Shown here in pieces: positions 5,545 through 42,993 of a DNA stretch of 42,993 nucleotides. Source of the stretch: a virus (taxonomy: Duplodnaviria; Caudoviricetes); IMG/VR virus record IMGVR_UViG_3300010220_000126, positions 1-42,993 of that record, one strand, 5' to 3'. The position numbers were made by a program, and so were the translations under genes. Within the stretch, counting starts at the first letter, position 1, and each line of letters starts with the position of its first letter. The notes beneath the pieces are model-generated. The model did not search any database, was not told the origin of the DNA, and worked only from the letters and a program-made list of their open reading frames with translations.

Positions 5545-5935
5545 GGTGTGGCCTCCTGTCTGTTGGGTGAGGGGTTTCCGCCGCGATCGCGGCCGTGTCG
5601 TTGTTCTCGATCCACGCGCGCCAATCGGTCGCCAAGGCGACGGCGGCGGTCACCTTGTCGCGAGCGGCCGGCGCGGTCGTGGCATTCGCCAGCACCTTGT
5701 CGATTGCCGCCACGCCGGAATGGACGTGCGACGGGCTGCGGCCGAACATATCCGCGGCCGCATTGAACGGCGTTCCAAACACCCGCCGCGCGAGAAACAT
5801 CGCGACATTGCGGGCGTGGCTGACAGGCCGCGTGCTGCGGCGCCGATTGGTGATCTCAAAAACCGGCACGTTGTAGACCTTGGCGACGACTGCCAAGGAC
5901 AGGGCATGCGCGGTTTCTTTGGTGATTGGTGTCAT
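5498..5935 (-). CDS. DnaA C-terminal (domain IV)-like HTH DNA-binding protein
   Basis: VVAKVYNVPVFEITNRRRSTRPVSHARNVAMFLARRVFGTPFNAAADMFGRSPSHVHSGV resembles DnaA domain IV; start re-called at 5935 (ATGA overlap). Confidence 0.7.
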   Translation of the reverse strand: MTPITKETAHALSLAVVAKVYNVPVFEITNRRRSTRPVSHARNVAMFLARRVFGTPFNAAADMFGRSPSHVHSGVAAIDKVLANATTAPAARDKVTAAVALATDWRAWIENNDTAAIAAETPHPTDRRPHHGAAHPRCTNNHRVA

Positions 5936-6707: not shown

Positions 6708-6944
6708 ATGAACGACGACGAAAGACTTGATTTAATAATTCAAACGGCTTTGTCTGGGCCGCTGACAGTAGATGTATTGGAAATTTTAAGTAGAGGGTTG
6801 TCTGATATGGCTTTAATCATATTGTGTGGCAACGTTTCTAAGCTGCCGGTAAAAATAAAATCGAGCGAAATGTTGAACGCAGAGCGCAGCTTTATTGCGC
6901 CTTGGATGGAAATGCGAAAGCCTCCACTTTCCCACTGTGAGTAA
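6708..6944 (+). CDS. Putative SOS-controlled ORF antisense to the repressor
   Basis: RBS GGGGAGGG a few nt before ATG 6708 (alternative start 6702), downstream of the LexA box; overlaps the repressor 3' two-thirds on the opposite strand. Confidence 0.4.
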   Translation: MNDDERLDLIIQTALSGPLTVDVLEILSRGLSDMALIILCGNVSKLPVKIKSSEMLNAERSFIAPWMEMRKPPLSHCE

Positions 6945-7072
6945 GATTTCGGAGATACGCCAGCGGCTTCCGCAAAGTCCTTTTGCTTCATGCCGAAAAA
7001 ACCTTCGCGGACGGCTCGAAGGCGTCCGGCAATGTCGGCATATTGCCCTGTGGGTGTGCGGCTCTTTTTCAT
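6740..7072 (-). CDS. Prophage repressor, XRE/HTH_3 family, without an S24 peptidase domain
   Basis: RLRAVRE..GMKQKDFAEAAGVSPKSYSQWESG....SLDFIFTG; divergent from cro; only 110 aa. Confidence 0.88.
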   Translation of the reverse strand: MKKSRTPTGQYADIAGRLRAVREGFFGMKQKDFAEAAGVSPKSYSQWESGGFRISIQGAIKLRSAFNISLDFIFTGSLETLPHNMIKAISDNPLLKISNTSTVSGPDKAV

Positions 7073-7090
7073 GGCATGGACTCTAGAGAC

Positions 7091-7150
7091 TCTAAAAAAA
7101 TTAGCATCCCAAATGATTTTCCATTGACATAAGTCTAAAAATTTTAGATT
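7091..7150 (+). promoter_or_regulatory. Right operators/promoter (OR/PR-like)
   Basis: TCTAAAAAAATTAGC (7091-7105) and TCTAAAAATTTTAGA (7134-7148, identical to 6494-6508) flank TTGACA (7124-7129). Confidence 0.85.
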
Positions 7151-7158
7151 TCTGTCGC

Positions 7159-7500
7159 ATGGATGATGTTCGTGAGATCATTTCGGCGATCGGGCGGCGC
7201 GCGTTAGGCGAAGCGCTTGGCGTTGGCGTGGGGACCGTGAGTGCGGCGGCGGCGGCGGGGTCATTCCCGGCGGCCTGGTATCCGACGGTTCGGAAGCTGG
7301 CACGCAAAGCGGACATCGCCGTTCCTGATTCCCTTTTCAATTGGCGCCGCGCGGAAGATGCGGCGGAAATCCACAACAGTTGTGGCGCGGCCGGTGCAGA
7401 GGTCGCGCCGGCCGATCCTCCTGACGGCGGTCGCGATGCCGCCAACTTGGCCGGGGCGCCTGCGGGTGCCCCGGTCCTTTCATCCGACGCGGCCGAATAG
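7159..7500 (+). CDS. Cro-like transcriptional regulator
   Basis: IISAIGRRALGEALGVGVGTVSAA...FPAAWY; first rightward gene with no obvious RBS (possibly leaderless). Confidence 0.75.
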   Translation: MDDVREIISAIGRRALGEALGVGVGTVSAAAAAGSFPAAWYPTVRKLARKADIAVPDSLFNWRRAEDAAEIHNSCGAAGAEVAPADPPDGGRDAANLAGAPAGAPVLSSDAAE

Positions 7501-7563
7501 GGCGCGACACGACCAAAGCACGGCGGCGCATGCTGCGCAGCGAAAAACGAGGCCAGGATTATC

Positions 7564-8058
7564 ATGGATGAAAAGGCGGCGCGCCTGACCCTCAAAGCCG
7601 CGTTTCGGCGGCTGGTGAAATTTGCCGGCGGCGTGGAATTGGCAGGGGCCGAAATCGGCGCCAATGCCGGCAATGTCTCGAAATATGGCGGCCCGGACTA
7701 CCGCGAAATGCCGCCGCTCATGGCCGTGGCCAGACTCGAGGCCGAGACCGGCGAACCGGCGGTGACGCGGGTTCTTGCCGACATGGCCGGTTATCGGCTG
7801 GTACCGCGCGGCGGCGGCGGCGGGGGCGATGACGTTTTTGTCGTGCGCCATGCGCAGCTCATGAAAGAGGTCGCGGACGCGGCGGCGGAGATCGCCGACG
7901 CGATCGGCGACCGGACCATAACCCCGGCGGAAGCCGCTCGGATCAACACCGAACTTGCCGACGTGACGGAAGCGATTTCGCGCCTGCAAGCGCTGTTGGC
8001 TGGCGGCGGCGTGGTGGACGCCTTCGGCCATGCCGGGCGGGCGAAAAAGGGGATCTGA
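7564..8058 (+). CDS. CII-like phage regulatory protein
   Basis: LKAAFRRLVKFAGGVE...PL..VARLEAETGEPAVTRVLA..GYRL...MKE.AD...I..A..D..ITPAEA; position after cro. Confidence 0.75.
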   Translation: MDEKAARLTLKAAFRRLVKFAGGVELAGAEIGANAGNVSKYGGPDYREMPPLMAVARLEAETGEPAVTRVLADMAGYRLVPRGGGGGGDDVFVVRHAQLMKEVADAAAEIADAIGDRTITPAEAARINTELADVTEAISRLQALLAGGGVVDAFGHAGRAKKGI

Positions 8059-8061
8059 CCC

Positions 8062-8211
8062 ATGGGGCACTGGTTGGCGGAAAGTTGGGCGTGGTTCGCG
8101 GAATTTTTCGCGGCGATGGCCGTGGTGTTCATCGGCGTTTTTCTGTTCGTCGCCGCCCTTTATGGCGGTGCGGTCGCCGCCGTCCGGCTGGTCGATTTCA
8201 TCGCGGGGTAA
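8062..8211 (+). CDS. Small membrane protein (49 aa, below the ORF-track cutoff)
   Basis: MGHWLAESWAWFAEFFAAMAVVFIGVFLFVAALYGGAVAAVRLVDFIAG; exactly fills the gap between its neighbours. Confidence 0.55.
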   Translation: MGHWLAESWAWFAEFFAAMAVVFIGVFLFVAALYGGAVAAVRLVDFIAG

Positions 8212-8216
8212 AGGAC

Positions 8217-8609
8217 ATGAGCACTGTCGCGAACAGCAGTCACATCACGGCGGCCCGGCGCGATCTGAATGAGGCGATCGCACGCGCTCGGACTGCGTGG
8301 GCAAAAGAAGGTCAGGACGATGGCGGCGGCCTGACGCCGGCCGATGACCTGATTTCGTCCGGGATCGCCTTGCAGGAATTCGCGCGGCTGTCCGACGGCG
8401 ACCGTCTGCTTTACCCGCACGGCTCGCCTATCAGCGGCTGGCGCTTTGCTAAATGGAGTTGGGAGGCGTTGCCGCCACGGGCGGCGTTGGTCAAGGGGAT
8501 CGCGCTTGTCGTGGTCGGCTATGAGCGCCGCGTCGTCGAAGCCGCGAGCGAAGCCGAAGAGGCGCGCAAGGCCGCCCGGCACGCCGCCGATACCGATCTG
8601 CCATTTTGA
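8217..8609 (+). CDS. Hypothetical phage protein
   Basis: AAGGA RBS before ATG 8217; ends DTDLPF (SSB-tail-like). Confidence 0.65.
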   Translation: MSTVANSSHITAARRDLNEAIARARTAWAKEGQDDGGGLTPADDLISSGIALQEFARLSDGDRLLYPHGSPISGWRFAKWSWEALPPRAALVKGIALVVVGYERRVVEAASEAEEARKAARHAADTDLPF

Positions 8610-8619
8610 GGGCGTGCCG

Positions 8620-8943
8620 ATGACGAATTCGTCAGGCTCCTACGGTCTCTCTCTAAAGGCGCATTTACGCGCTTATGACCGGTTGCCGATGCGTGTTCGT
8701 GAGCGGTTGCAGCGTGCCAATTGTGATTGGGTCGTGACTAGGCTTGCGGACAGATGGGACAGAGGCTTGGCGACGGTCGAGGAACTCATTGCCACTATCG
8801 ACCGGTGGGACCGGGAAGACACAGAAACGCACTTTGCGCGGCTTGAGCGCATGGCGCGGACGGGAACCGACTACCACGCACGATTGACGAAAAAGGGGCT
8901 CAAGAAATACGGCGCCTTGGCGAATGGTGATGACAATGGCTGA
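8620..8943 (+). CDS. Hypothetical protein (DUF6525-like)
   Basis: LRAYDRLPMRVRERLQRANCDW motif; GAGGG RBS. Confidence 0.55.
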   Translation: MTNSSGSYGLSLKAHLRAYDRLPMRVRERLQRANCDWVVTRLADRWDRGLATVEELIATIDRWDREDTETHFARLERMARTGTDYHARLTKKGLKKYGALANGDDNG

Positions 8944-9904
8944 AAAGACCGCGATCGAATGGACTGACGCGACGGTCAACTTTTGGTGGGGCTGCACCAA
9001 GGTGGGGCCGGGCTGCGACAACTGTTATGCGGATAGCCACGCGAGCCGCTTCGGCGAAAGCCTGTGGGGCGCGGGCGTGCCGCGCCGCAAGATCAAGGGC
9101 GCCGTCGCGCTGTTGCGCCGGCTCGACCGGCGGTACGCAGATGCGGGCAACGGGGCGGCCTTTGGGGTGTCGGCGCCGAAATACAGCCGGCGACGGCGGG
9201 TTTTCGTGCAATCCATGTCGGACCTGTTCGACAACGACGTGCCGCTTGCCTGGTTCGATGAAGCCTGGACGACGATCGAAGAGTGCGGCCGTGTCGATAT
9301 CCAGGTCGTGACCAAGCGGGTCAGCAATGTGGAAAAGCGGCTTGCGGCGATCGGCCGAACGGCATGGCAGAAACATGCTGGACTGATCATCACCGTCGTG
9401 AACCAGGAAGAGGCGGATCGCGACGTGCCGCGCCTGTTGGCACTGAAAGAACGGCTCGGCATTCCGTGGGTGGGGCTTTCAATCGAGCCGATGTTGGGGC
9501 CGATTGATCTAACACGGATCGCGGTCGCGGGTGGTTGGTATGACGCTTTGTCCGGTTGGCGCAATGTCAAAGAGCGGTTTGCCGGTATCGGGTATTTGCT
9601 CGATTGGGTCATCGTCGGTGGCGAAAGCGGGCCGGATGCGCGGCTGATGCATCTAGATTGCCCGCGCGCGATCCGCGACCAATGCGCGGCGGCGGGCGTG
9701 CCGTTCTTTTTCAAGCAGTGGGGTGAGTGGTTGCCGATTGATTCTGGTCATCCGGGCCTTAGAGGCCCCGGCTTCGGACGGTTTGATCACTGTCCGGTTA
9801 ACGAGGCGGGCAATGCAACGCACGTCCGTGCTGGCAAGAAAGCTGCCGGCCATCTACTCGACGGTGTCGAGCACCACGAGTTTCCGAAGTGGATCGCCGC
9901 ATGA
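8936..9904 (+). CDS. Phage Gp37/Gp68 (DUF5131) family protein
   Basis: TAIEWTDATVNFWWGCTKVGPGCDNCYA...RVFVQSMSDLF...TKR...SIEPMLGP...DWVIVGGESG...PFFFKQWG. Confidence 0.92.
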   Translation: MAEKTAIEWTDATVNFWWGCTKVGPGCDNCYADSHASRFGESLWGAGVPRRKIKGAVALLRRLDRRYADAGNGAAFGVSAPKYSRRRRVFVQSMSDLFDNDVPLAWFDEAWTTIEECGRVDIQVVTKRVSNVEKRLAAIGRTAWQKHAGLIITVVNQEEADRDVPRLLALKERLGIPWVGLSIEPMLGPIDLTRIAVAGGWYDALSGWRNVKERFAGIGYLLDWVIVGGESGPDARLMHLDCPRAIRDQCAAAGVPFFFKQWGEWLPIDSGHPGLRGPGFGRFDHCPVNEAGNATHVRAGKKAAGHLLDGVEHHEFPKWIAA

Positions 9905-10158
9905 CGTTGCATCTGGTTTCGTCAAATCCGTCGGCATTCTGCATCGGTTGGCCGAGTCCTTTCGGGGGCTGCTATCGCAGCGTCTGCGCACGGTGTGGTC
10001 GTGATATCGCGGTGCCGCGCGATCTTCATGGCCAGATGGTGTGGTGCCTCTATTGCGGGCTGGACGCTGGCTTGGTGCCGCCGGTCGACGTTCCCATAGG
10101 TGCTTACGCTCACGACGGATGCACGGTGTGGCACGAAGCGCGGGGGCGCCTGACATGA
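9901..10158 (+). CDS. Small Cys-rich hypothetical protein (CARC..CLYC)
   Basis: ATGA-coupled on both sides. Confidence 0.6.
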   Translation: MTLHLVSSNPSAFCIGWPSPFGGCYRSVCARCGRDIAVPRDLHGQMVWCLYCGLDAGLVPPVDVPIGAYAHDGCTVWHEARGRLT

Positions 10159-10523
10159 CCCGGCCGCGCCGTATTCAGCTTTCGAGGAAAAAGGGCTTTC
10201 GCCTGCAAGAGCATTCGCACGCCTTGAACGGCCGGCCGGCGGTGGTCGTGAGTCGACCGTCCAGGTGGGGAAATCCGTTTGTGATCGGTCGCGAATATGT
10301 GCGGCGTAGCATGGCGCCGGGCGGCGGGGAAATTGCTGGCGTCGTCTGTGACGCCGCGCAGGCCGTACAACTTTTTCGCCGGTTCACGGCCCGTGAAACT
10401 CAACTACGGATCGACGCCGCGCGCGAACTTAGGGGCAAGAACCTCGCCTGTTGGTGTCCGCTCGACGGGCCGTGCCACGCGGACGTTTTGCTCAAGATAG
10501 CGAACGGGGAGGACGCGAAATGA
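10155..10523 (+). CDS. DUF4326 family protein
   Basis: PRRIQLSRKKGFR...VVVSRPSRWGNPF...ELRGKNLACWCPLDGPCHADVLLKIAN. Confidence 0.9.
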   Translation: MTRPRRIQLSRKKGFRLQEHSHALNGRPAVVVSRPSRWGNPFVIGREYVRRSMAPGGGEIAGVVCDAAQAVQLFRRFTARETQLRIDAARELRGKNLACWCPLDGPCHADVLLKIANGEDAK

Positions 10524-11671
10524 CCTATCCGTCGCACCCTTTCGCCGATCTGTTTCCGATGATCGACGGCCCGGATTTCGACCGGCTTGTCGAGGATATC
10601 CGAGCGCATGGGCTAATCGAGCCCGTGGTGCTGTTGGATGGCAAAATCCTGGACGGCCGCAACCGGGCGCGGGCCTGCGAGGTGATCGGGATCGAGCCGG
10701 TCACACGCGCCTTTGACGGCAACGATCCGCTGCAATTCGTGCTGTCCTTGAACCTGCGACGGCGGCACCTGACAGCCAGCCAGCGGGCGCTTATCGCGGC
10801 ACGTCTGGAAACGCTAAGGCAAGGAAAAACAAAGGAAAATGCCGGCAAACAGGCAAAATTGCCTGTTTCGCGCGACGACGCGGCGGCGGCCTTGAACGTC
10901 TCGCGAAGGTCCGTCACCGACGCCAAGAAGGTGATGACCGACGCGGCGAAGCCGGTGGCGGCTGCGGTGGAGCGCGGCGACCTCGCGGTCGATGTGGCGG
11001 CCAAGCTAACCGCGATGCCGAAGCCGGCGCAAACGGCGATCCTGAAGCGGGCCAAGACCGACGGCGGCATCGATGGCCGGCGGGTCGGCCAGGAGATCAA
11101 ACGGGCGGCGCGGGCGGCGCGCGAACGCGAGCTTGGGGCGCGCCAACAGGCCTTGCCGGACCGGCCCTATGGGGTCGTCTATGCCGACCCGCCGTGGCGC
11201 TTCAAGCCGTTCTCGGACGATACCGGCATGGACCGGGCGGCGGACAATCACTATCCGACGCAACCGCTCGACGTCATCAAGGGTCACCGGCCGGTGACGG
11301 CCGATGACGCGGTGCTGTTTCTATGGGCAACCGCGCCGATGCTGGTCGAAGCGTTGGAGGTCATGGCGGCTTGGGGGTTCGCCTATAAGTCGCACGCGAT
11401 CTGGGACAAGGTGAAGGCCGGGACCGGCTACTGGTTCCGATCGCAGCACGAGGTGCTTTTGGTCGGCACCAAGGGCAATCCGCCCGCCCCCGCCGATGTG
11501 CCGCCAAGCCTTTTCTCCGAGCGCGCGACGCGTCACAGCGCCAAGCCGGCCATCTTTCGCGAGATCATTGGAGACCTGTTCGAGACCCTGCCGAAACTCG
11601 AAATGTATTGCCGCGATCCGGCGCCGGGCTGGGACGTGTGGGGGTTCGAGGCGGACGGGGGCGGGGGATGA
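10520..11671 (+). CDS. ParB/Srx-like domain fused to an MT-A70 family adenine methyltransferase
   Basis: HPFADLFP...LVEDIRAHG..EPVVL...ILDGRNR...NLRRRHLT; C-terminal YADPPW...HYPT...LFLWAT...WGF.YK...HS.KP...KLEMYCR..GWDVWG. Confidence 0.9.
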   Translation: MTYPSHPFADLFPMIDGPDFDRLVEDIRAHGLIEPVVLLDGKILDGRNRARACEVIGIEPVTRAFDGNDPLQFVLSLNLRRRHLTASQRALIAARLETLRQGKTKENAGKQAKLPVSRDDAAAALNVSRRSVTDAKKVMTDAAKPVAAAVERGDLAVDVAAKLTAMPKPAQTAILKRAKTDGGIDGRRVGQEIKRAARAARERELGARQQALPDRPYGVVYADPPWRFKPFSDDTGMDRAADNHYPTQPLDVIKGHRPVTADDAVLFLWATAPMLVEALEVMAAWGFAYKSHAIWDKVKAGTGYWFRSQHEVLLVGTKGNPPAPADVPPSLFSERATRHSAKPAIFREIIGDLFETLPKLEMYCRDPAPGWDVWGFEADGGGG

Positions 11672-12150
11672 GGCACATTCAACCGTTTCTGTTCGGTTCG
11701 GGCTGGATAGAAGTCAAGGATGGCAATGACACGGCTCGTGCGATCTTCGACCAGCACTACAGCCGGTATCACTATCGTGATGGTCGAAAGCCGCTGTTGT
11801 TCGTCGGTCCGGGTGAAAAACTCGTTTTGATGACGGCGGACGCGGACGCCCTTTGCGTTTGGCGCAAATTCATCAGCAATGATGACCAGGAAGGCGTCAA
11901 CTGTGCCGTCTTTCGCCGCGAAGGCGGCCATGTGGCGAGTGACCTTTTGAGGCAGGCTATGGGCGCCGCGTGGCGGCGCTGGCCCGGGGAGCGACTCTAT
12001 ACCTATGTCGATCCGGTGGCGGTTAAACCAACCATGCGTGCATCGCGTCCGACATGGGGGCATTGCTTCTATCAGGCCGGCTGGACATTCGCGGGGCTCA
12101 CGAAGAAGCGGCTTCATATCTTGGAATGCCGTTATGGGGGCGGGGAATGA
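11668..12150 (+). CDS. Conserved phage protein, possible Mom-like/GNAT-fold DNA-modifying enzyme
   Basis: HYS near the N-terminus, ASDLL, LYTYVD...GHCFYQAGWTFAG resemble the Mom-family HY / SYAD..G..Y.A.NW pattern. Confidence 0.55.
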   Translation: MRHIQPFLFGSGWIEVKDGNDTARAIFDQHYSRYHYRDGRKPLLFVGPGEKLVLMTADADALCVWRKFISNDDQEGVNCAVFRREGGHVASDLLRQAMGAAWRRWPGERLYTYVDPVAVKPTMRASRPTWGHCFYQAGWTFAGLTKKRLHILECRYGGGE

Positions 12151-12740
12151 CCGACAAACGGGTCGCCGTCCTCTTTGCGCGCCGGGATAGCATCTACAAG
12201 CGCTATCCACATTGCGACGTCTATGACGTCGACCGGGATGCACGCACATATGGTGGTGATCTGCCCATCATCGCGCATCCGCCATGCAGGGCGTGGGGTG
12301 CGTTGCGTCGCTTCGCGAAGCCGGCACCAGGCGAAAAAGAGCTGGCGATTTGGGCTATTGATCGCATTCGCTCCAACGGGGGTGTGCTTGAACACCCGCG
12401 TGCGTCATCGCTGTGGCCGGCTCTTGGGTTGCCCACCGGGCGTGACGTCGACCAGTGGGGCGGTTTCACGCTTGATGTCAACCAAAGTTGGTGGGGTCAC
12501 CTCGCACAAAAGCGATCGTTTTTCTATGTCTGCGGCTGCTTACGTCGGGACGTGCCGACAATTCCCTTGTCGCTGTCGTTGCCAAAAAAGGTCGTCGCGA
12601 CGTCAAGGTCTCGCAAGGGTTCGTCTGGTGTCCACCTTCCGAAGAGCCTTCGTGAGGTGACTCCGCCACATATGGCTGAATGGCTGATCTCGCTGGCGTT
12701 GGCGATATCGGAGCGTCGTGCGGATGGTGAAGCCGCATGA
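12147..12740 (+). CDS. Minimal/degenerate C5-cytosine DNA methyltransferase-like protein
   Basis: AVLFA (motif I-like), IIAHPPCRAW (PC catalytic motif), VLEHP (ENV-like), Q.WWGH..QKRS, R.VTP..MAEWL. Confidence 0.7.
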   Translation: MTDKRVAVLFARRDSIYKRYPHCDVYDVDRDARTYGGDLPIIAHPPCRAWGALRRFAKPAPGEKELAIWAIDRIRSNGGVLEHPRASSLWPALGLPTGRDVDQWGGFTLDVNQSWWGHLAQKRSFFYVCGCLRRDVPTIPLSLSLPKKVVATSRSRKGSSGVHLPKSLREVTPPHMAEWLISLALAISERRADGEAA

Positions 12741-12747
12741 ACGCGCC

Positions 12748-13068
12748 CTACCCCGCCTTTTTCGACTTGCGTTCGCTGGCCGGCGTGCCGTCCAGCCCGA
12801 GCGCGACGCGCAGCGCCGCGTTGGCGCGCGTCTGCCAGCCCTTCGGCTCTGGCGTTTTCAGCGCGGCTATCACGTCGTTGTCGAGCATGATCGACGTTGC
12901 CGTTTTGTTGCTTCCGGCCGGGCGGCCGGGGCCGCGCTTGATCGCCTTGGCGTTGGCCGGGATTTCCCATGTGTCGGGATCGGCGGCGATGCCGCGCCGA
13001 ATTTTCGCGTCTTCCGCTGCGGTGGGCATATGCACCTTCGGTGCCTTGCGAGCCTTAGCCATTTTCAT
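12748..13068 (-). CDS. brnA: BrnA family antitoxin
   Basis: EDAKIRRGIAADPD...RGPGRP...K.ATSIMLDNDVIAALK....GWQTRANAALR. Confidence 0.85.
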   Translation of the reverse strand: MKMAKARKAPKVHMPTAAEDAKIRRGIAADPDTWEIPANAKAIKRGPGRPAGSNKTATSIMLDNDVIAALKTPEPKGWQTRANAALRVALGLDGTPASERKSKKAG

Positions 13069-13327
13069 AGTCCTTTCTCCATGTCCGCACTTCGCGCGCC
13101 GTGGCAAGGCGCAACGAGATCACGCGGGTTTTCCGGCCGCGCATCGTGATGACCGCGACGTGAACGTCATCGCCGATCGGCGCGGCCCAGACTTCGCGCT
13201 CCTCGCCATCGACGACGTGGATATCGAAGCAGACCGAAAAGTCATGCTCGAAGCGGCCATATTCGGCAAGGGAAACGCCGTGCTTGGCAATGTTGGCCTT
13301 GTCCTTGTTGGGGTCGAATTCAAACAT
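13055..13327 (-). CDS. brnT: BrnT family ribonuclease toxin
   Basis: FEFDPNKDKANIAKHGVSL...GEER...V.VIT.RG...RVISLRLAT.RE. Confidence 0.9.
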   Translation of the reverse strand: MFEFDPNKDKANIAKHGVSLAEYGRFEHDFSVCFDIHVVDGEEREVWAAPIGDDVHVAVITMRGRKTRVISLRLATAREVRTWRKDYENG

Positions 13328-13344
13328 TGGTCCGCTCCGTTCGA

Positions 13345-13402
13345 TGTAATTAATCTATATATATTTATTCGGGCTGTCAACAATAAATCACTATATTTTT
13401 AT
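13345..13402 (-). promoter_or_regulatory. AT-rich brnTA promoter/operator
   Basis: Minus-strand TTGACA (13375-13380) with a TATA-rich tract downstream; inverted ATTTATT/AATAAAT around it. Confidence 0.6.
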
Positions 13403-13422
13403 TCGGCCGCGATGAGGTGGCC

Positions 13423-13635
13423 ATGAGCGGCGCGACCTCTTTGGGGCTGACAGGTGTCAGCCTGTTTGACCCGGACAGAAACGCGCAAGATGGCTACGCG
13501 TTGGCGCTTGCCGCGATCCGCGAACGGCGCGTGCGGGCGGGCGAAATCAGCCCGCGCAACGACCAAGAGCGGCGGTGGGCCGATGAGGGCGCGGTGGCGC
13601 CGTCGCAGCTCGATACGGTGAGGGCGGGCCTATGA
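13423..13635 (+). CDS. Hypothetical phage protein
   Basis: GAGGTGG RBS, 70 aa. Confidence 0.6.
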   Translation: MSGATSLGLTGVSLFDPDRNAQDGYALALAAIRERRVRAGEISPRNDQERRWADEGAVAPSQLDTVRAGL

Positions 13636-14321
13636 GCTTTGAGGGGAGCGGCTTACCAGTGGCAGGCATCACGCAAGGGCGCGATGGATTGGGCAAGGCC
13701 GGTGATATCGAATTCCGCAATCGCGTACCCGCCGTTATGGGTCGGTGCGCGGACGTAGAGACTGGTGCCGCCGAAAAGACCCTTGATGAAAGGAATGGCC
13801 ACCGCGCCGGTCCACAAGCCGACCGTGTCGCGGCTTGTAGATGGCCGGAATCGCTGCTTTCTCGGCTTGCCGTCGTCTATTCGATAGTCTGCGGTGATGG
13901 CTCGGTACGACGAAAAGAAGGCGTCGGCGAAGGTGATCCGTGCGGTCGTGGTGTTTTCGACACAGCCAAGCGTCAGCGTGTGCTTGCCCTTTTTGGCGAC
14001 CGTGACGACGCCGATCAGGGGAGAGTCGTCAAGCTTCGATTTCCCGCGATGCACGAACCACGCACCGGCTTTCACCGTCTCAGCCGGAAGTGGGGCGCCG
14101 TCATGCGTCGTGTGGGTTTGCGGCGCCGCGTTGGCCTTGTCGTAGCAGGCAAGACGTTTCGCGTCGTCGGTGATCTCCCTGCATCGCTCGGCCATAGCCG
14201 GGCTCGGTGCGGTAAGCAGGACAGCAAGAACAATGAGCGCGCGCATGGCCTTTCTCTCGGTCGGTGCCGGCGCTCATTCCATCTGAATAGAGCCCCCAGC
14301 GCAAGAGGTGTGGTCCGATGA
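13632..14321 (+). other. Sense-strand bridging ORF 2 (229 aa) spanning the antisense VasI/TagO-like gene
   Basis: Starts in ATGA 13632-13635 and ends in ATGA 14318-14321 (start of the replication gene). Translation not demonstrated. Confidence 0.5.
13653..14246 (-). CDS. Exported protein resembling the T6SS-associated VasI/TagO family (moron)
   Basis: Signal peptide; C..I.DD.KRLACYD, SKLDDS, L.LGC.ENTT, YRIDD, AEFDITGL...I.PLR.ACHW; GAAAGG RBS. Confidence 0.78.
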   Translation of the reverse strand: MRALIVLAVLLTAPSPAMAERCREITDDAKRLACYDKANAAPQTHTTHDGAPLPAETVKAGAWFVHRGKSKLDDSPLIGVVTVAKKGKHTLTLGCVENTTTARITFADAFFSSYRAITADYRIDDGKPRKQRFRPSTSRDTVGLWTGAVAIPFIKGLFGGTSLYVRAPTHNGGYAIAEFDITGLAQSIAPLRDACHW

Positions 14322-15352
14322 GTTGGCAGGCAACCGCGTGGGCAAAGACACAGACGGCCGGCGGCGGTGTGCGCAAGGCGGTGTTGATGATCCTTGCCGA
14401 AAACTGCCACGCCAATGGGCAGGCGATCGTCTCGGTTCGCCAGATCGCCGTTGAGGCCGAAATCCACGAACGGTCCGTGTTGCGCCATATCAAGGCGCTT
14501 GAAGAGCGCGGGCTTATCGAGGTGCGCAAGCGCAAGCGGGCGAACGGCGAACAGGACTGGAACGCCTATATCCTGCCGTTCCATCAGACGTCCGTGGAAC
14601 TGCGGTACGATCCGGGTGACTCTGTGTCACCCGGTGAGGGGAACGCCGCTGATTCGGGCGCTGAAGCGGCCTGTCAAGACGGTAAAAATCAGGGTGACAG
14701 CCTGTCACCCGGTGACGGGGCGCCGGGTGACAGAGACGGTCATGACCGGGTGACAGGCGTGGTCAAGCCGGGTGACTCCTGTGTCACCCCTATAGAAACA
14801 ACTAAAAAAACAACAAATAAACCCTCTAACTCTCAAGACGCGGGCGCGCGCGACGCGCCGGGCGCGGGCGATGATTATCCGCCCTTCAAGGCCTTGTTCG
14901 ATGCATGGCCGCAAGGCGCGTGGGGCGATGTGGCCAAGGCCGAAACCCATTTCGACACGATGAGCGGGGCGGATCGCCGCAAGGCTTTGGATGCTGTCGA
15001 TTGGTATATCGAGGGGCTGCGGCAACGCGGGCGCACGCTGATTCCGGCCATCGTCACCTATCTGACCGGTGGTGCTTGGCGCTATCGCGAGGAGGCCGAG
15101 CGCGCCAAGGCGGACGCGCGGGAACGGCGGCGGGATGCTGTGGCAGTGCCGGAAGCCGACACAAAGCCCAGGGTATTTGTTGCCCGGACCGATCCGCAAT
15201 GGAACGACATTGTGCATGCATCGCAGCGCGGTGACCCGCCCTGCTTCAAATCCAAAACGCATGGTGCCGAAGGGTGGATTTTCGACAAGGTCGTGGTGGA
15301 TATGGTGCGGTCGCCGGGTGCCGATCCGCCGGACGAAGATGCGGCGGAATAG
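14318..15352 (+). CDS. Phage replication initiator (N-terminal HTH)
   Basis: MSWQATAWA...KAVLMILAE...SVRQIA.EAEIHERSVLRHIKALEERGLI...N.Y; contains iterons. Confidence 0.85.
   Translation: MSWQATAWAKTQTAGGGVRKAVLMILAENCHANGQAIVSVRQIAVEAEIHERSVLRHIKALEERGLIEVRKRKRANGEQDWNAYILPFHQTSVELRYDPGDSVSPGEGNAADSGAEAACQDGKNQGDSLSPGDGAPGDRDGHDRVTGVVKPGDSCVTPIETTKKTTNKPSNSQDAGARDAPGAGDDYPPFKALFDAWPQGAWGDVAKAETHFDTMSGADRRKALDAVDWYIEGLRQRGRTLIPAIVTYLTGGAWRYREEAERAKADARERRRDAVAVPEADTKPRVFVARTDPQWNDIVHASQRGDPPCFKSKTHGAEGWIFDKVVVDMVRSPGADPPDEDAAE
14612..14836. repeat. Putative replication origin: iterons plus A-rich tract
   Basis: Repeated (CC)GGGTGAC units, three as palindromes GGGTGAC-N4-6-GTCACCC, within 14612-14790, followed by TATAGAAACAACTAAAAAAACAACAAATAAA. 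Confidence 0.8.
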
Positions 15353-15394
15353 GCGGGCATGAACTGAGGCAAGGCGAAGGGCAAGGGCAAGACG

Positions 15395-16006
15395 ATGCGG
15401 CGGAAAGAGGACGGCAAAGCGGAGATCGGCCGGGCAAAGCGGTGGGCGCGGGCGCTTAAGCGCACCCTGCGCAATGGCCACAAGGCGCGGTGGTTCGTGG
15501 TTCGTGTGCGGGCTGGTGAAGAGTTTCGGGCGGAAGAAATCCTGGCCAAGAACGGCTATGGCTGTTTCGTGCCGTTCGAAAAGAAGTGGCGGCGTCGCAG
15601 CCGCTATCAGTGCGCGCCGGAATTGGTGCGCCGGCCGTTGCTGATTCGCTACATGTTCGTCGGGTTCTCGGCCGATCCGATCGACTGGTACCGGCTGGCG
15701 TCGTTCCCGTTTGTGGAAAAGATCGTCGGTGTCGGCGGCTATCCCTTGCAGGTGCCGTGGTCCCACGTGGCGGACTTCGTGGTGCTCTACAACCAAGACG
15801 GCAGGACGGCGCCACGCGAGCAGAAGTACATGAAAGCGAATAGAGAATTCGGTGTGGGCGATCGTGTCGAGGTGTTCGGCGGGCCGTTCGACGGCAGCGT
15901 GCTGCGGGTCGAAGAGATACGCGGATCGAAGGCGAAAGTGCTGGTCGATATGCTCGGGTCCGAGCGGGCGGTGACGATCCCGGTTGACAAATTGGCGGCG
16001 GCCTGA
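15395..16006 (+). CDS. NusG-paralog transcription antiterminator
   Basis: WFVVRVRAGEE...GCFVP...PLLIRYMFVGF (NGN domain) and FGVGDRVEVFGGPFDG...KVLVDMLG (KOW domain); sits in the lambda Q position. Confidence 0.9.
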   Translation: MRRKEDGKAEIGRAKRWARALKRTLRNGHKARWFVVRVRAGEEFRAEEILAKNGYGCFVPFEKKWRRRSRYQCAPELVRRPLLIRYMFVGFSADPIDWYRLASFPFVEKIVGVGGYPLQVPWSHVADFVVLYNQDGRTAPREQKYMKANREFGVGDRVEVFGGPFDGSVLRVEEIRGSKAKVLVDMLGSERAVTIPVDKLAAA

Positions 16007-16013
16007 CCAACAA

Positions 16014-16137
16014 TGACGCCAGGACGACACGCGGTCCCTGCCATGGCAACCATCCCCGCAAGGCGGATCGGAGAGTAAGACCCGGCAAACCGGTGCCCGG
16101 ACTTCGCGACAGCCGAGTGCGGCAGGTGCGAGCGTCA
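16014..16137 (+). ncRNA. Putative structured late-operon leader RNA
   Basis: TTGACA at 15984-15989 upstream; nested pairings TGACGC/GCGTCA and CCTGCC/GGCAGG enclose hairpins at 16052-16068 (GCAA loop) and 16082-16093. Confidence 0.4.
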
Positions 16138-16188
16138 CAGGCGGCGGCGCGTGGCCAAACGGAAATCAAACGACAAGGCAAGCACGAT

Positions 16189-16566
16189 GTGACCGAGCGC
16201 ACGACGCGGCGGCACCGGACCAATCCGCACCATCACCTCTACAACAACACGCGGTGGCGGAAGCGCCGCAAGGCGCATTTGGAGAGCGAGCCAGTGTGTC
16301 GGATGTGCGCGGCACGCGGGTTGGTGAACGACGGCTCGCGGCAGATAGACGGAACGCCGCAGCCGGACCCGCTCCGGCGGTTCTTGGTCGCGGATCATAT
16401 CGAACCGCATCGGGGAGATCGGGGAAAGTTCTGGCACGGTGAATTGCAAACCCTGTGCCCAGACCATCACGACGCGGTGAAACAGGCGGAAGAAGCGCGC
16501 GGGTTCTCGACCGAGTGCGGAAGCGACGGGTGGCCGGTGGACGCGAAGCATCCCGCCAATCGGTAG
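16189..16566 (+). CDS. HNH endonuclease (cos-packaging associated)
   Basis: LYNNTRWRKRR..HL..EPVCRMC...VADHIEPHRGD...LQTLC..HHD..KQ..E...DGWP.D; start uncertain. Confidence 0.9.
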   Translation: MTERTTRRHRTNPHHHLYNNTRWRKRRKAHLESEPVCRMCAARGLVNDGSRQIDGTPQPDPLRRFLVADHIEPHRGDRGKFWHGELQTLCPDHHDAVKQAEEARGFSTECGSDGWPVDAKHPANR

Positions 16567-25101: not shown

Positions 25102-25298
25102 CCGCCATTCCGTTTCGACAATGGCTAAAATGGTTGCCGGCGGTCGGTTGGTCTCCGACCGAATTCTGGTCTTCCTCCCTGACCGAGTTTTTCTCTGCGA
25201 TCGAGGGTTGGAACCGCATGAACGGCGGCGGCGATCCGGACGGCTTCACCGATGAAGACCGGAGAGAAGTCGAGCGGCTAAAGCGGGTTTACTTGTGA
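25098..25298 (+). CDS. Tail assembly chaperone C-terminal part (gpT-like)
   Basis: GWSPTEFWSSSLTEF..AIEG; only a TTG start, reachable by -1 frameshift. Confidence 0.8.
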   Translation: MTAIPFRQWLKWLPAVGWSPTEFWSSSLTEFFSAIEGWNRMNGGGDPDGFTDEDRREVERLKRVYL

Positions 25299-25691
25299 GG
25301 GCCGGCCGCTGTCATGCGCCATGAGTTCTGTAAATGGTTCCCATTTGACATTTGCGCAGCGGGCGGCGGGATTGACGCTTAGTGCTTCGACCTTTTGGTT
25401 GCGGAAGCCAAAAGCTGTTGTCTTGACTCCGGTATAGGCGCCGAAGCTGTTCTTCGCGTTCATGCGCACACATACGGCTATGAAATCGCCCGCTAATGGC
25501 GTTGTAGCGTGAAATGGTGCCGAAATCTCTGCATCTCGCACTGAGTACGGGTCTTTCAGGGACGCCCGGTAGTACGCGAATAGTGCCGCACGGTATTCCT
25601 GTGGCAGGTCGTCGGTAATTGTGACCGGTCCATTCGTTGATTGGCAGCCGATTAGCGACACGGCAATGAAGAACAGAATAAGTCGCATCAT
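25278..25691 (-). CDS. Lipoprotein moron
   Basis: Signal peptide with lipobox LIGC; LKDPYS...VCVRMNAKNSFGAYTG; opposite strand, lower GC. Confidence 0.85.
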   Translation of the reverse strand: MMRLILFFIAVSLIGCQSTNGPVTITDDLPQEYRAALFAYYRASLKDPYSVRDAEISAPFHATTPLAGDFIAVCVRMNAKNSFGAYTGVKTTAFGFRNQKVEALSVNPAARCANVKWEPFTELMAHDSGRPSQVNPL

Positions 25692-38054: not shown

Positions 38055-38076
38055 CCCGCCGCAAGGCGGGTTTTTT
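38055..38076 (+). terminator. Intrinsic terminator before the lysis genes
   Basis: CCCGCC-gcaa-GGCGGG followed by TTTTTT. Confidence 0.8.
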
Positions 38077-38090
38077 CATGGGAGAACGTC

Positions 38091-39011
38091 ATGCAGCTTT
38101 CCACGCGGGGCGCGGATTTCATTCTTCGCCACGAAGGATTTAGGTCGAAGGCCTATCGCGACCCGGTCGGGGTCATCACAATTGGGGCGGGGTACACGAA
38201 CCGCAGCCAAGTCTTTCGGGCCTATTGGCGCAAGACACGCGGTCACGATTTGCGCCTTGGCGACACCATCGGCCGTGGCGAATGCATGGACATTCTTCCG
38301 GCGATCGCCAACGAAGAATACGGCGCGGCCGTGAACAGCAAAATCGCGCCGAAAGCGCAGCATCATTACGACGCCGCGACGTCCGTCTGTTTCAATCTCG
38401 GTCCGGCGGCGGCGGGGTGGAAGTGGGCTGTCGCACTTCGTGGCGGACGGATCGCGGACGCGGTCCGGCTGTTGCGGGTCACCGGAACGACGGCCGGCGG
38501 GCGCCGCCTTGAGGGGCTGGTGATCCGGCGGCGGCACGAGGCCGCGCTTATCGAGACCGGCGACTATGGTGACGGCAAGGCGCCAGCCTATGGCGCCGAT
38601 GATGACAACGTGCCGTCCGCCACGGACGACCGAGGCGATTACGCGAGCTTGCTTCGCGGCTACCAGGAAGACCTTAAAGCGCTCGGCTTCGATCCGGGTC
38701 CGATTGACGGCATCTGGGGGCGAATGACCCGCGCGGCCGTGCTGGCGTTTCAGAAGCACCACGCGGACCTGGTCAACGATGGCATTCTCGGCCCGGCGAC
38801 GCGGGCGTCGATCGATCGCGCGATGGATGCGCGCGGCGTGACGGCTAAGAGCGCGGGCGGCATCGCGCTTGCCGCTGTCGCGGCCGTGGTGGCGCCACAG
38901 GCGGGCGAAGCCGGTTTGTGGGTGCTCGGTGCCGCGCTTGCTGTCGCTGCCGTTTCTGGCGTCGCTGTGTGGCGCTATCGGGGCGAAATCAAGCATTGGT
39001 GGCGGGGGTGA
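38091..39011 (+). CDS. Endolysin: GH24 lysozyme, peptidoglycan-binding domain and hydrophobic C-terminus
   Basis: HEGFRSKAYRDPVGVITIGAG (E-8-D-5-T triad), GL..RR..EA, Q..L..LGFDPG.IDG.WG..TR.AV.AFQ...DGI.GP.T. Confidence 0.92.
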   Translation: MQLSTRGADFILRHEGFRSKAYRDPVGVITIGAGYTNRSQVFRAYWRKTRGHDLRLGDTIGRGECMDILPAIANEEYGAAVNSKIAPKAQHHYDAATSVCFNLGPAAAGWKWAVALRGGRIADAVRLLRVTGTTAGGRRLEGLVIRRRHEAALIETGDYGDGKAPAYGADDDNVPSATDDRGDYASLLRGYQEDLKALGFDPGPIDGIWGRMTRAAVLAFQKHHADLVNDGILGPATRASIDRAMDARGVTAKSAGGIALAAVAAVVAPQAGEAGLWVLGAALAVAAVSGVAVWRYRGEIKHWWRG

Positions 39012-41063: not shown

Positions 41064-41309
41064 ATGTGGACGCATCGACCGACATGGCCAGAGCGAGGCC
41101 CGACCGATCGCACCGTCTGGTGCGACGGGAAGCGGGTCGCGCGTATCTACCTGGACGACCATGACGGCGTCGCCGGGATTTGGCGGTGGTTTGGTGGCTG
41201 GGCGGCGGAAGGCAACCAAGGTCGCGCGCCGACGCTGGCAGCCGCGCTTGAGGCGGTTCGTGTGACATACCAAGAAACCGTCGGCACTAAGCCGCGAAGA
41301 CGAATGTAG
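41064..41309 (+). CDS. Small Trp-rich protein, probably SOS-regulated
   Basis: 81 aa (DGKRVARIY...IWRWF...G.A.T..AA); the stop codon lies inside the phage att arm. Confidence 0.65.
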   Translation: MWTHRPTWPERGPTDRTVWCDGKRVARIYLDDHDGVAGIWRWFGGWAAEGNQGRAPTLAAALEAVRVTYQETVGTKPRRRM

Positions 41310-42993
41310 GGGTGCGGCGGTTGCGAGCCCCCGCAACCACCGATACCAACACTCCCGAGGAAATCCCTCCGGGAGTGTTTGTTTTTGAAGCCTTTCCAAT
41401 ACTTTGCCGTTCCGTCCATTCAAGGATGGTGCGCAATTCTCCATGCAGTGTGGCGTAGATTTCGCCGCGTTCCGGCCCCGGAGTGAGCACAATCTTCTCG
41501 ATCAGCATCCGTAAGGTCTCGGCTGCTTCTTGACGTTCGGCAGGGCGATTCAAGGCCTTCGTTAGCGTCGCAACCTTCTTCGCGTAGATGCTCGCGGCCG
41601 TCGGAAGAAGGTCCGGCTTGTCTTCGGGCGCATCGGCCAAAAGCGCGGTCAGTTCGGTCTTGCGGACTTCCAGCCCCGTCATCTTCTCTTTCATCGACGG
41701 ATGGTACATGCCGTCGGCAATGGCCTCGACGATCTGGGCGATCTGCTTCTCGATCTTTGCGAGTTCCACCTGCCAAGCATCACCGTTCGAGCGCCGCTCG
41801 CGGTTTAGCCGGTTCGTCTCTTCGGCATAGGCTCGCATCGCTTCCGCAGCGACTTCAGGCGCCATCATCCGGTCCTTCAGGCCAGCGAGGACGCGGTTCT
41901 CCAGGTCTTCGCGCGGAATGGTGCGGCTGTTGGAACAAGTGCCTTTGCTGATGTGGTTCGAGCAGGCAAAGCGGCCAGCGCCGCGCAGCGAGTAAGGACC
42001 CCCACAGCAACCGCAGTAGACCAGACCGGACAGAAGAGACTGAGGCCGGCGCTTGCCGTTGAGCTGGTTCTTCTTGTGGTGCTTGCGCACCGCCTCGGTG
42101 ACATTCGCGTATTTGTCGGCGATCACCGCCTGCCGATCGCGCACCGCTTGCCAAAGCGCATCATCGACAATCCGCAGTTCGGGCACCTCGCGGATCAGCC
42201 AGTCACTCTCCGGGTTGAGGCGCGAGACACGCTTGCCGGTGCTTGGGTCCTTGATGTAGCGCAGCCTGTTCCAGATCAGGCGGCCAATATAGAGCTCGTT
42301 ATTGATGAGACCTGTTCCGCGCTTCACATGGCCACGGATCGTGGTGTCTCCCCACGGCTTGTCGTTGGGTCCTGGAATACCCTCTTCGTTCAGTGTGCGT
42401 GCGATCGTTCGCGGACCGATTCCTGATGCGAATTCGCGGAAGACGCGACGGATGATATTCGCCTCAGCCTCGTCGATCTCCCGGTCGCCTCGGATCGGTT
42501 CTCCTCGGGCATCGAGTTGCTTGACGACCTTGTAGCCATAACAGAGCCCGCCACCGGACTTGCCTTCCTCCACGCGACCACGAAGGCCTCGATGTGTCTT
42601 GGCGGCGAGATCCTTGAGGAACAACGCATTCATCGTGCCCTTCAGGCCGACATGCAACTCGCTGATCTCGCCTTCCGCCAGCGTTACGATCGGTACGCCG
42701 GCGAACTTCAGATGCTTGAAGAAAGTCGCGACGTCGGCCTGATCGCGGGAGATGCGATCCAGAGCTTCGGCCAGCACCATGTCGAACTGCCCGGCCTGGG
42801 CGTCCTGCAGCAGTGACTGGATGCCCGGACGCAAGATCATGCTCGCACCGGAGATGCCGGCATCCTTGTAGGTGCCGACGATCTTCCATTTCTCGCGCTT
42901 CGCCTGCTCCCGGCAGATACGGAACTGGTCCTCGATCGAGGCCTCCCGCTGATTGTCCGAGGAATAGCGAGCGTAGAGCGCGACGCGCATCAT
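41287..42993 (-). CDS. Large serine recombinase of the neighbouring integrative element
   Basis: RVALYARYSSDNQ...EALDRISRDQAD...HVGLKGTMNALFLKDLA.KTHRG...LLSGL.YCGCCG; same family as the left integrase; the last ~14 codons come from the phage arm. Confidence 0.95.
   Translation of the reverse strand: MMRVALYARYSSDNQREASIEDQFRICREQAKREKWKIVGTYKDAGISGASMILRPGIQSLLQDAQAGQFDMVLAEALDRISRDQADVATFFKHLKFAGVPIVTLAEGEISELHVGLKGTMNALFLKDLAAKTHRGLRGRVEEGKSGGGLCYGYKVVKQLDARGEPIRGDREIDEAEANIIRRVFREFASGIGPRTIARTLNEEGIPGPNDKPWGDTTIRGHVKRGTGLINNELYIGRLIWNRLRYIKDPSTGKRVSRLNPESDWLIREVPELRIVDDALWQAVRDRQAVIADKYANVTEAVRKHHKKNQLNGKRRPQSLLSGLVYCGCCGGPYSLRGAGRFACSNHISKGTCSNSRTIPREDLENRVLAGLKDRMMAPEVAAEAMRAYAEETNRLNRERRSNGDAWQVELAKIEKQIAQIVEAIADGMYHPSMKEKMTGLEVRKTELTALLADAPEDKPDLLPTAASIYAKKVATLTKALNRPAERQEAAETLRMLIEKIVLTPGPERGEIYATLHGELRTILEWTERQSIGKASKTNTPGGISSGVLVSVVAGARNRRTPTFVFAA
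41301..41356. repeat. Right attachment junction: phage arm (41301-41325), spacer, neighbour arm (41332-41356)
   Basis: Mirror of the left junction; the core GCCCCCGCAACCA equals the 3' end of bacterial initiator tRNA-fMet. Confidence 0.9.
41348..41386 (+). terminator. Terminator-like hairpin downstream of the att core
   Basis: AACACTCCCG...CGGGAGTGTT followed by TGTTTTT. Confidence 0.6.

Follow-up and report, generated by a model that had tools for sequence, protein, structure and literature searches.

The temperate phage of IMG/VR record IMGVR_UViG_3300010220_000126 (42,993 nucleotides (nt), all of which was analyzed and is hereafter called the window) carries two accessory units, a predicted brnTA toxin–antitoxin pair and a VasI/TagO-like gene, that lie antisense within its rightward early operon. 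Each unit is covered on the operon strand by a stop-free frame that starts and ends on the junctions with neighboring operon genes. We refer to these frames as bridges and to the antisense genes as cargo. Comparison with related loci indicates that bridges are real and non-random at the family level, and that they are likely to act through being translated rather than through their product. With moderate confidence, we propose that bridges are kept open by selection and that ribosome coverage of the bridge averts Rho termination before the replication gene rep, with a relay of ribosomes to the next gene.

Bridge 1 (12737–13426, + strand) and bridge 2 (13632–14321, +) are each 690 nt in length, and the single stop codon of each 229-codon frame is its last codon; the other two + frames contain 4–13 stops over the same spans. 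As an earlier reading of the DNA without database searches (the sequence-only reading) had described, both belong to a series of nine ATGA stop/start overlaps (9901, 10155, 10520, 11668, 12147, 12737, 13423, 13632, and 14318), and we found all nine, with every open reading frame (ORF) closing on the next ATGA. Overlapping stop and start codons of this type are a hallmark of translational coupling by termination–reinitiation. Bridge 1 runs over brnA (12748–13068, –), brnT (13055–13327, –), and their promoter. It does stay open, as had been claimed, across two genes in different frames (brnT codon-to-codon with the bridge, brnA one base out of register) and across an AT-rich tract, the TAA and TGA triplets of the spacer all falling outside the bridge frame. 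Bridge 2 lies codon-to-codon over the VasI/TagO-like gene (13653–14246, –) and closes on the start of rep (14318–15352, +).

By the available sequence criteria, the antisense cargo genes are the real genes, rather than the operon-strand frames. Neither bridge matched Pfam, PHROGs, or PADLOC, and a codon model of the phage scored the bridges at 7.9 and –9.2 versus 19–22 for the cargo. BrnT (PF04365, E-value 8e-16) and BrnA (PF14384, E-value 6e-13) are both above curated cut-offs, and their order, brnT followed by an overlapping brnA, is that of a type II toxin–antitoxin unit, which the pair is predicted to be. A start for brnA at 13107 was set aside, 13068 being the most likely start. The VasI-like protein (PF11319, E-value 3e-16; phrog_1848) has a hydrophobic N-terminus that by eye is a probable signal peptide. 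PADLOC gave no match for the cargo.

In a codon-to-codon antisense frame, only TTA, CTA, and TCA create stops. All three cargo genes lack these codons, including the VasI-like gene, which has 24 leucine and serine codons. Recoding nulls gave probabilities of an open frame of 0.026–0.071 for bridge 1 and 0.11–0.62 for bridge 2; a model based on G+C content at third codon positions (GC3) gave 0.31 for the absence of the three codons in the VasI-like gene, consistent with the earlier caution that the openness of bridge 2 alone is weak evidence. The joint chance of both bridges, with a one-in-three frame match for each, is 0.0003–0.005. As this is only suggestive for a feature picked from many, relatives were tested; evidence from the window by itself is moderate, and relatives carry the case. 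An antisense lipoprotein-like gene in the late operon (25278–25691, –; phrog_2320) serves as an internal control. It contains seven TTA, CTA, or TCA codons and has all three + frames closed, in agreement with the claim that it has no bridge.

The precision of the bridge ends, which the sequence-only reading had emphasized, is evident at both ends of both bridges, but such ends are partly inherited junctions and hence less telling. A 4-nt overlap occurs at 176 of 464 ordinary sense junctions (38%). In one related locus, L044 (loci and regions are designated by L numbers), the bridge end is an in-frame duplicate of the last 40 codons of the upstream gene (L044:4737–4859 and 5552–5674; 95 of 105 nt identical), which suggests that the insertion arose through recombination with the tail of a gene. 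Exact ends therefore appear to be partly relics of old gene junctions, to which selection would contribute matching frames and the removal of stops.

A first test used homologs of the VasI-like gene. We collected 96 loci (47 viral and 49 genomic), of which nine lacked all three of TTA, CTA, and TCA; removal of five near-duplicates left 91. Loci were then chosen blind to these codon counts, by requiring an opposite-strand gene that ends within 60 nt of the cargo stop (26 of 91), then a restart overlapping the stop of that neighbor (14 of 26), and then codon-to-codon register (8 of 14). Seven of these eight copies have no TTA, CTA, or TCA (L063 has one), as compared with none of the 18 others. 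Four of the seven adjoin CII or rep genes (L003, L008, L044, and L047) and L071 follows CII, while the neighbors of L026 and L050 are unnamed. An eighth bridged copy, L085, is located just downstream of a cro-like gene. Six of the eight homologous bridges end exactly on the next ATGA; that of L071 ends 18 nt short of the next start, and that of L026 closes 15 nt beyond the start of the cargo gene.

The nine bridged VasI-like genes, that of the window included, contain no TTA, CTA, or TCA where GC3 predicts ~30; other codons ending in A still make up 15% of their four-fold sites. None of 42 other VasI-like genes of matched GC3 lacks the three codons (mean 3.9), a comparison in which three of the nine (L050, L071, and L085) were grouped as early after counts were seen. 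Nine viral copies antisense in late operons have 3–12 of these codons each. The nine bridged copies require five changes on a quick tree and are therefore not one clade, with a borderline clustering test (48 of 500 shuffles as low).

A broader survey was anchored on the CII family, which was found in 59 of 401 genomes of one order, at 87 places. We took 76 regions, having dropped 11 (duplicates, near contig ends, or weak), and excluded nine of the 76 for a common non-phage gene block, leaving 67. Genes were called with our own codon model, which produced four antisense miscalls over real sense genes, exposed by Pfam, and missed the late lipoprotein gene of the window. Of 70 antisense islands, 47 were scored; the other 23 comprise three miscalls over sense genes, three of less than 60 amino acids, and 17 outside a recognizable phage operon. 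Three single gene calls were also dropped from scored islands. An island was considered bridged if a frame restarts at the upstream stop, crosses the cargo, and ends no more than 15 nt from another start.

Bridges were found for 23 of 29 islands internal to early operons, and for none of 10 at junctions and none of 8 in late operons (Fisher 3.7e-8). Island L122, scored as an unbridged junction, is early and bridged by hand inspection, which changes the counts to 24/30 versus 0/17. Of the 29 early islands, 26 have some frame free of stops across all of their cargo genes, with 8.1 expected; the corresponding figures are 2 versus 1.3 for junction islands and 3 versus 3.9 for late islands. Among 16 islands confirmed by Pfam, 12 are bridged and 14 open, with 6.6 expected. 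AT-rich cargo carries the weight here, chance being negligible for it, while codon counts are not informative for the GC-rich HicBA and BrnTA cargo. For example, three pentapeptide-repeat genes of 672, 397, and 331 codons contain no TTA, CTA, or TCA, with 23.7, 7.0, and 6.8 expected, and the 672-codon gene has a GC3 of 0.42. The lipoprotein family that is unbridged in the late operon of the window, with its seven such codons, is bridged in the early operon of L085 and has none there. Bridged brnTA recurs in L127, L136, L157, and L122, and the geometry of the window, in register with brnT and offset to brnA, in L136 and L157. The proteins from a separate search for BrnT homologs came without gene neighborhoods and do not enter these comparisons. 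The 23 survey bridges span 366–2298 nt, and the equal length of the two in the window was rejected as coincidence.

Several further features of bridges in related loci were observed. Chains of two consecutive bridges cross successive antisense genes at L085:2635–4077, L003:4438–4884, and L115:14385–17541. At L122:6311–9781 (–), a coupled frame of 1156 codons covers four antisense genes, including BrnTA, and is fused in frame to a P22_AR_N antirepressor domain; a similar in-frame fusion to the next gene occurs in L130. Four prophage regions (L105, L115, L116, and L171) have pentapeptide-repeat proteins among the antisense cargo of their early operons.

Taken together, the VasI-like family and the survey support the proposal of the sequence-only reading that antisense genes in early operons are selected to remain translatable on the sense strand, with late cargo being free of this effect. 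The finding that it had named as counting against this proposal, stops in the bridge frame of most homologous insertions, was looked for among relatives, and the proposal survived (7/8 versus 0/18 VasI-like copies; 23/29 early islands bridged). Its label of moron for the cargo did not fare as well. A moron is a gene added between conserved phage genes and equipped with a promoter of its own. The cargo resembles morons in being extra genes between conserved phage genes, and the gene that separates the two cargo units in the window has sense neighbors in five of five strong matches, all distant relatives, so that cargo is absent from that position there. A scan blind to Rho-dependent ends found no terminator-like site downstream of brnA or of the VasI-like gene on the – strand, and the cargo genes are therefore not canonical morons; their codons, in addition, appear adjusted to the opposite strand, unlike those of morons.

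The peptide encoded by a bridge is probably a by-product. In the bridged pair L003/L050, 27 of 35 four-fold sites of the cargo, which are first positions of bridge codons, differ, as compared with fractions of 0.54–0.81 in 12 unbridged pairs. At a cargo identity of 0.67, the bridges of this single close pair are 0.37 identical, which is within the unbridged range. Dual-coding constraint on both frames was not detected at the four-fold sites of this one close pair. The lack of conservation, seen in one close pair and across unrelated cargo types, argues that the open frame rather than the peptide is kept.

These observations bear on the notion that bridges are real dual-coding genes with functional proteins, for example in exclusion. 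There is a precedent in Pseudomonas phage Fc02, in which gene 10 overlaps the antisense olg1 and both ORFs make proteins whose exclusion activity is lost upon premature stops (PMC9936078). We regard this explanation as very improbable for bridges, as neither window bridge nor any of 27 rescanned survey frames had a family match, the sequence of a bridge is dictated by unrelated cargo (HicBA, BrnTA, pentapeptide, DUF4145, or VasI), and four-fold sites are saturated in the one close bridged pair. Scarcely more probable is an origin by chance and inheritance, in which the often open shadow frames of GC-rich DNA became flanked by leftover insertion junctions with no selection. At the codon usage of this phage, shadow windows of 197 codons are open in 15% of cases and those of 90 codons in 44%, brnA has no tyrosine, which eases the offset frame, the 38% of ordinary junctions with 4-nt overlaps supplies the ends, and L092, an unbridged copy of the type associated with type VI secretion systems (T6SS) with a GC3 of 0.84, is open and has no TTA, CTA, or TCA. 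Bridge 2 by itself is compatible with chance. At the family level, this explanation is largely refuted by AT-rich cargo with none of the three codons versus 6–24 expected, by the contrast between early and late cargo, by the count-blind VasI-like test, and by specificity for just three codons. A passive shadow ORF would have its openness set by GC3 irrespective of context, which was not observed in the VasI-like family or the survey.

Two other explanations accept selection on the frame and differ in its cause. Translation of the bridge might serve to win a head-on conflict with cargo transcription, with ribosomes aiding the early polymerase, stripping complementary mRNA, and preventing duplex-dependent cleavage, so that cargo is turned off at induction. 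Trailing ribosomes are known to affect collisions between polymerases. The cargo has its own facing candidate promoter, and the bridges of L026 (closing 15 nt beyond the cargo start) and L134 extend over the cargo without reaching the next gene, so coverage of cargo may matter more than hand-over. Nested antisense genes of the S. aureus phage 80alpha also switch reciprocally between lysogeny and lysis (PMC11087260). This explanation, which we consider unlikely, leaves unexplained why bridges are missing over late antisense cargo, to which this conflict applies as well (0 of 8 late islands), and why none of nine late VasI-like copies is free of the three codons. A little less likely still is a pure translational relay, in which downstream early genes need termination–reinitiation and the bridge only carries ribosomes, with transcription unaffected. 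Such a relay is consistent with the established coupling at ATGA (PMC6728339), with the exact closure of most bridges on the following start (6 of 8 VasI-like homologs; 16 of 23 survey bridges, as delimited, in NTGA overlaps), and with the in-frame fusions in L130 and L122. However, both downstream starts in the window have a GAGG Shine–Dalgarno sequence, a new strong initiation site would be cheaper than purging stops over up to 3.5 kb, and exact ends are expected from inherited junctions.

The sequence-only reading had proposed that bridges avoid Rho polarity and that early lytic transcription would also silence the cargo. In the explanation we favor, protection from Rho, a backward cassette would leave 600–3500 nt of untranslated and relatively C-rich RNA in a tightly coupled operon, upstream of rep. 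Rho and NusG terminate transcripts that are not under translation (PMC11551753), and ATGA pairs were translationally coupled in 13 of 14 cases tested (PMC6728339). An insertion would persist when the old ATGA junctions that flank it share one frame and stops are purged from that frame, which in codon-to-codon register would cost the cargo only synonymous changes. Ribosomes would then restart at the stop of one neighbor, traverse the cargo, and pass to the gene that follows, while the cargo would be expressed from its own promoter in the lysogen. Late operons would need no bridge, probably as they are read under antitermination, here by a NusG-family protein. In line with protection from Rho, the operon-strand C/G ratio is higher over the bridge than in neighboring genes for 22 of 23 survey bridges.

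A number of observations weigh against this explanation. The C-richness is slight (median C/G 1.02 versus 0.89) and is not shared by bridge 2 of the window, the C/G of which is 0.82 versus 0.72–0.88 in early genes, with no strong C-rich segment; no clear Rut-like signal was found in the window. A NusG-like gene was recognized in only 11 of 76 regions, so antitermination, as far as tested, does not generally account for the lack of bridges over late cargo. The early, junction, and late classes behind the contrast of 23/29 with 0/10 and 0/8 follow gene position but were set after counts were seen. Thirteen of the 29 early islands have no family match on either strand, and some could be miscalls, as four other calls were. 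Three early islands are closed (L138; L171, with one stop inside; and L175), and three others (the second island of L116, L134, and L169) have an open frame that is uncoupled at one end. Sequence data, finally, do not separate protection from Rho from reinitiation or from collision and duplex effects.

Among systems described previously, the architecture corresponds to that of the noncontiguous operons of S. aureus phages, exemplified by ith/tha of 80alpha, in which an antisense gene with its own promoter is nested in a phage operon (PMC11087260). The window likewise has antisense genes nested among co-oriented operon genes, with candidate promoters, and reciprocal expression in lysogeny and lysis of the 80alpha type is plausible. 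In 80alpha, the nested gene interrupts the cI operon, whereas here cargo interrupts the lytic early operon and appears recoded to keep a coupled frame open. The available passages on 80alpha describe no operon-strand ORF over the nested gene, and the main text has no word beginning with "translation" (PMC11087260). Termination–reinitiation at ATGA or TGATG involves the same 4-nt overlaps as those at both bridge ends and along the whole operon, but unlike usual coupled genes, the coupled unit here is apparently a frame over the reverse strand of another gene rather than a functional gene (PMC6728339). Fc02 has the closest phage overlap among these systems. Its lytic-operon ORF also overlies an antisense gene expressed in lysogeny, but both Fc02 products have assayed exclusion activity, while the operon-strand peptide here is without conservation (PMC9936078).

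A reverse frame of ambigrammatic narnaviruses runs codon-to-codon with the coding frame, which avoids CUA, UUA, and UCA. Bridges share the trait of a reverse ORF without homologs that is open over a real gene by codon avoidance. For narnaviruses, whose reverse ORF is likewise long, the authors suggest that translation itself, and not the product, may matter (PMC8316113). Those are eukaryotic RNA viruses with a whole-segment ORF and no operon, whereas bridges occur in a DNA prophage and are local, coupled on both sides, and dependent on position (PMC8316113). Bridges, as far as sequence tells, work like an ambigrammatic genome, but the window is no member of that class, being a tailed temperate phage rather than an RNA virus segment that needs its reverse ORF to persist. 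Shadow ORFs of GC-rich genomes are also codon-to-codon antisense frames without homologs. Bridges differ from these in occurring at GC3 values of 0.33–0.49 as well, in crossing promoters and several genes, and in starting and ending on the junctions of neighbors. In the literature searched, the coverage of which was incomplete, we found no account of stop-free frames that span antisense cargo and are coupled to its neighbors, and the arrangement appears to be a variant of the noncontiguous operon that is new with respect to that literature.

Between the two bridges lies a gene encoding 70 amino acids (13423–13635, +), with its own GAGG Shine–Dalgarno sequence and 62 relatives at an E-value of ≤0.001. 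In five of five strong matches among the 401 genomes, sense genes flank the gene on either side and are coupled to it or fused with it; these are distant relatives and not the parent allele. Its sense neighbors elsewhere suggest that both cargo units are insertions beside this gene. A parent allele without cargo was not seen among the relatives searched. The gene belongs to a 60-amino acid phage family without a Pfam or PHROG match, some members of which are by eye C-terminal fusions to methylase- or nuclease-like proteins; the alignment of this family was too variable for pattern scans, and its use on five chosen genomes gave no match. The cargo stops are 7 nt (brnA) and 17 nt from the stop of the upstream gene. 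Only the brnTA promoter tract dips in G+C content (0.51, versus 0.58–0.68 for genes), while G+C content is lower in 21 of 23 survey bridges.

Candidate promoters precede both cargo units. That of brnTA (13352–13380, –; TTGACA-17-TAGATT) lies in the AT-rich tract and matches the sigma-70-like consensus at 10 of 12 positions. It was the sole promoter-like match found by the scanner in 7000–16500, but is not significant alone, as 2.0 matches were expected in shuffled sequence. The tract (13346–13407) also contains a 7-bp inverted repeat around the –35 box and a direct repeat of ~17 bp, by eye candidate BrnA operators. The candidate for the VasI-like gene (14276–14304, –; TTGCGC-17-TGGAAT), beside the rep ribosome-binding site, was found by eye and not reported by the scanner. 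In bridged L003, L008, L047, L050, and L071, the cargo strand carries a common CTCGAC motif, by eye a likely –35 variant, immediately ahead of the VasI-like start; in most cases the motif adjoins the ribosome-binding site of the next gene. The T6SS-associated VasI-like family is a common phage accessory (L001–L047), often found right behind the repressor or late activator or beside the tape measure gene.

The window is, by gene content, a temperate tailed phage, with a serine integrase, a CI/CII region, the early operon, rep, a NusG-family antiterminator, terminase, tape measure, and tail and lysis genes. Its host is probably an alphaproteobacterium, judging from the organisms of named homologs. 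The CI-like repressor gene (6740–7072, –; HTH_3, E-value 2e-11; phrog_8/phrog_4) is followed by a CII-like gene (7564–8058, +; phrog_101, E-value 4e-18; PF06892) near the start of the rightward early operon. The ATGA-coupled early genes (8924–12740, +) encode DUF5131, an 85-amino acid ORF, DUF4326, a ParB/MT-A70 methyltransferase, phrog_24928, and phrog_12600; the 85-amino acid ORF at 9901 had no match in Pfam or PHROGs. The O-like replication initiation protein Rep matches phrog_270 (E-value 2e-18) and phrog_391, and the NusG-family antiterminator (15395–16006, +; PF02357, E-value 4e-12; phrog_6386, E-value 6e-30) is encoded by the final early gene ahead of the packaging genes. Two serine integrase genes (phrog_95) occur, one at each end (1–1620 and 41287–42993), the right one of which may belong to an adjoining element. 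The endolysin gene (38091–39011, +) is faced by an equally long open – frame (38076–38996) that is likely to be an ordinary shadow frame. When viral contigs were scanned with the 70-amino acid, VasI-like, and NusG-like proteins one at a time, no close relative of the phage was confirmed, and a phage collection searched with the NusG-like protein yielded two matches at 28% identity. In the nine excluded survey regions (L121, L123, L124, L126, L131, L158, L161, L162, and L166), a lone CII-like gene precedes a common, mostly opposite-strand block that resembles a fixed prophage remnant; no phage match was found in the three clusters of this block that were scanned.

It is an evenly balanced question whether cis-acting ribosome-bridge ORFs form a general class, used by temperate phages of alphaproteobacteria, that functions solely by being translated and admits defense and accessory cargo to the lytic early operon. 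If so, the phage would gain a free switch, with cargo on in the lysogen and overrun at induction, without polarity. The cargo would be under a readable ban on three codons, and translated, unconstrained ORFs of 120–1150 codons would form a standing pool from which N-terminal fusions and new genes could originate; this would be a concrete way for overlapping and de novo genes to arise. This would be a bacterial case in which selection on a reading frame, and not on its product, shapes codon choice on the opposite strand, and would offer a one-codon test of how far transcription–translation coupling constrains operon evolution. It would also predict where accessory and defense genes can insert in a prophage, and an antisense gene without TTA, CTA, and TCA under a coupled ORF would be a signature for lysogeny-expressed cargo. 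For annotation, it would warn that many long hypothetical ORFs of early operons hide a real gene on the opposite strand.

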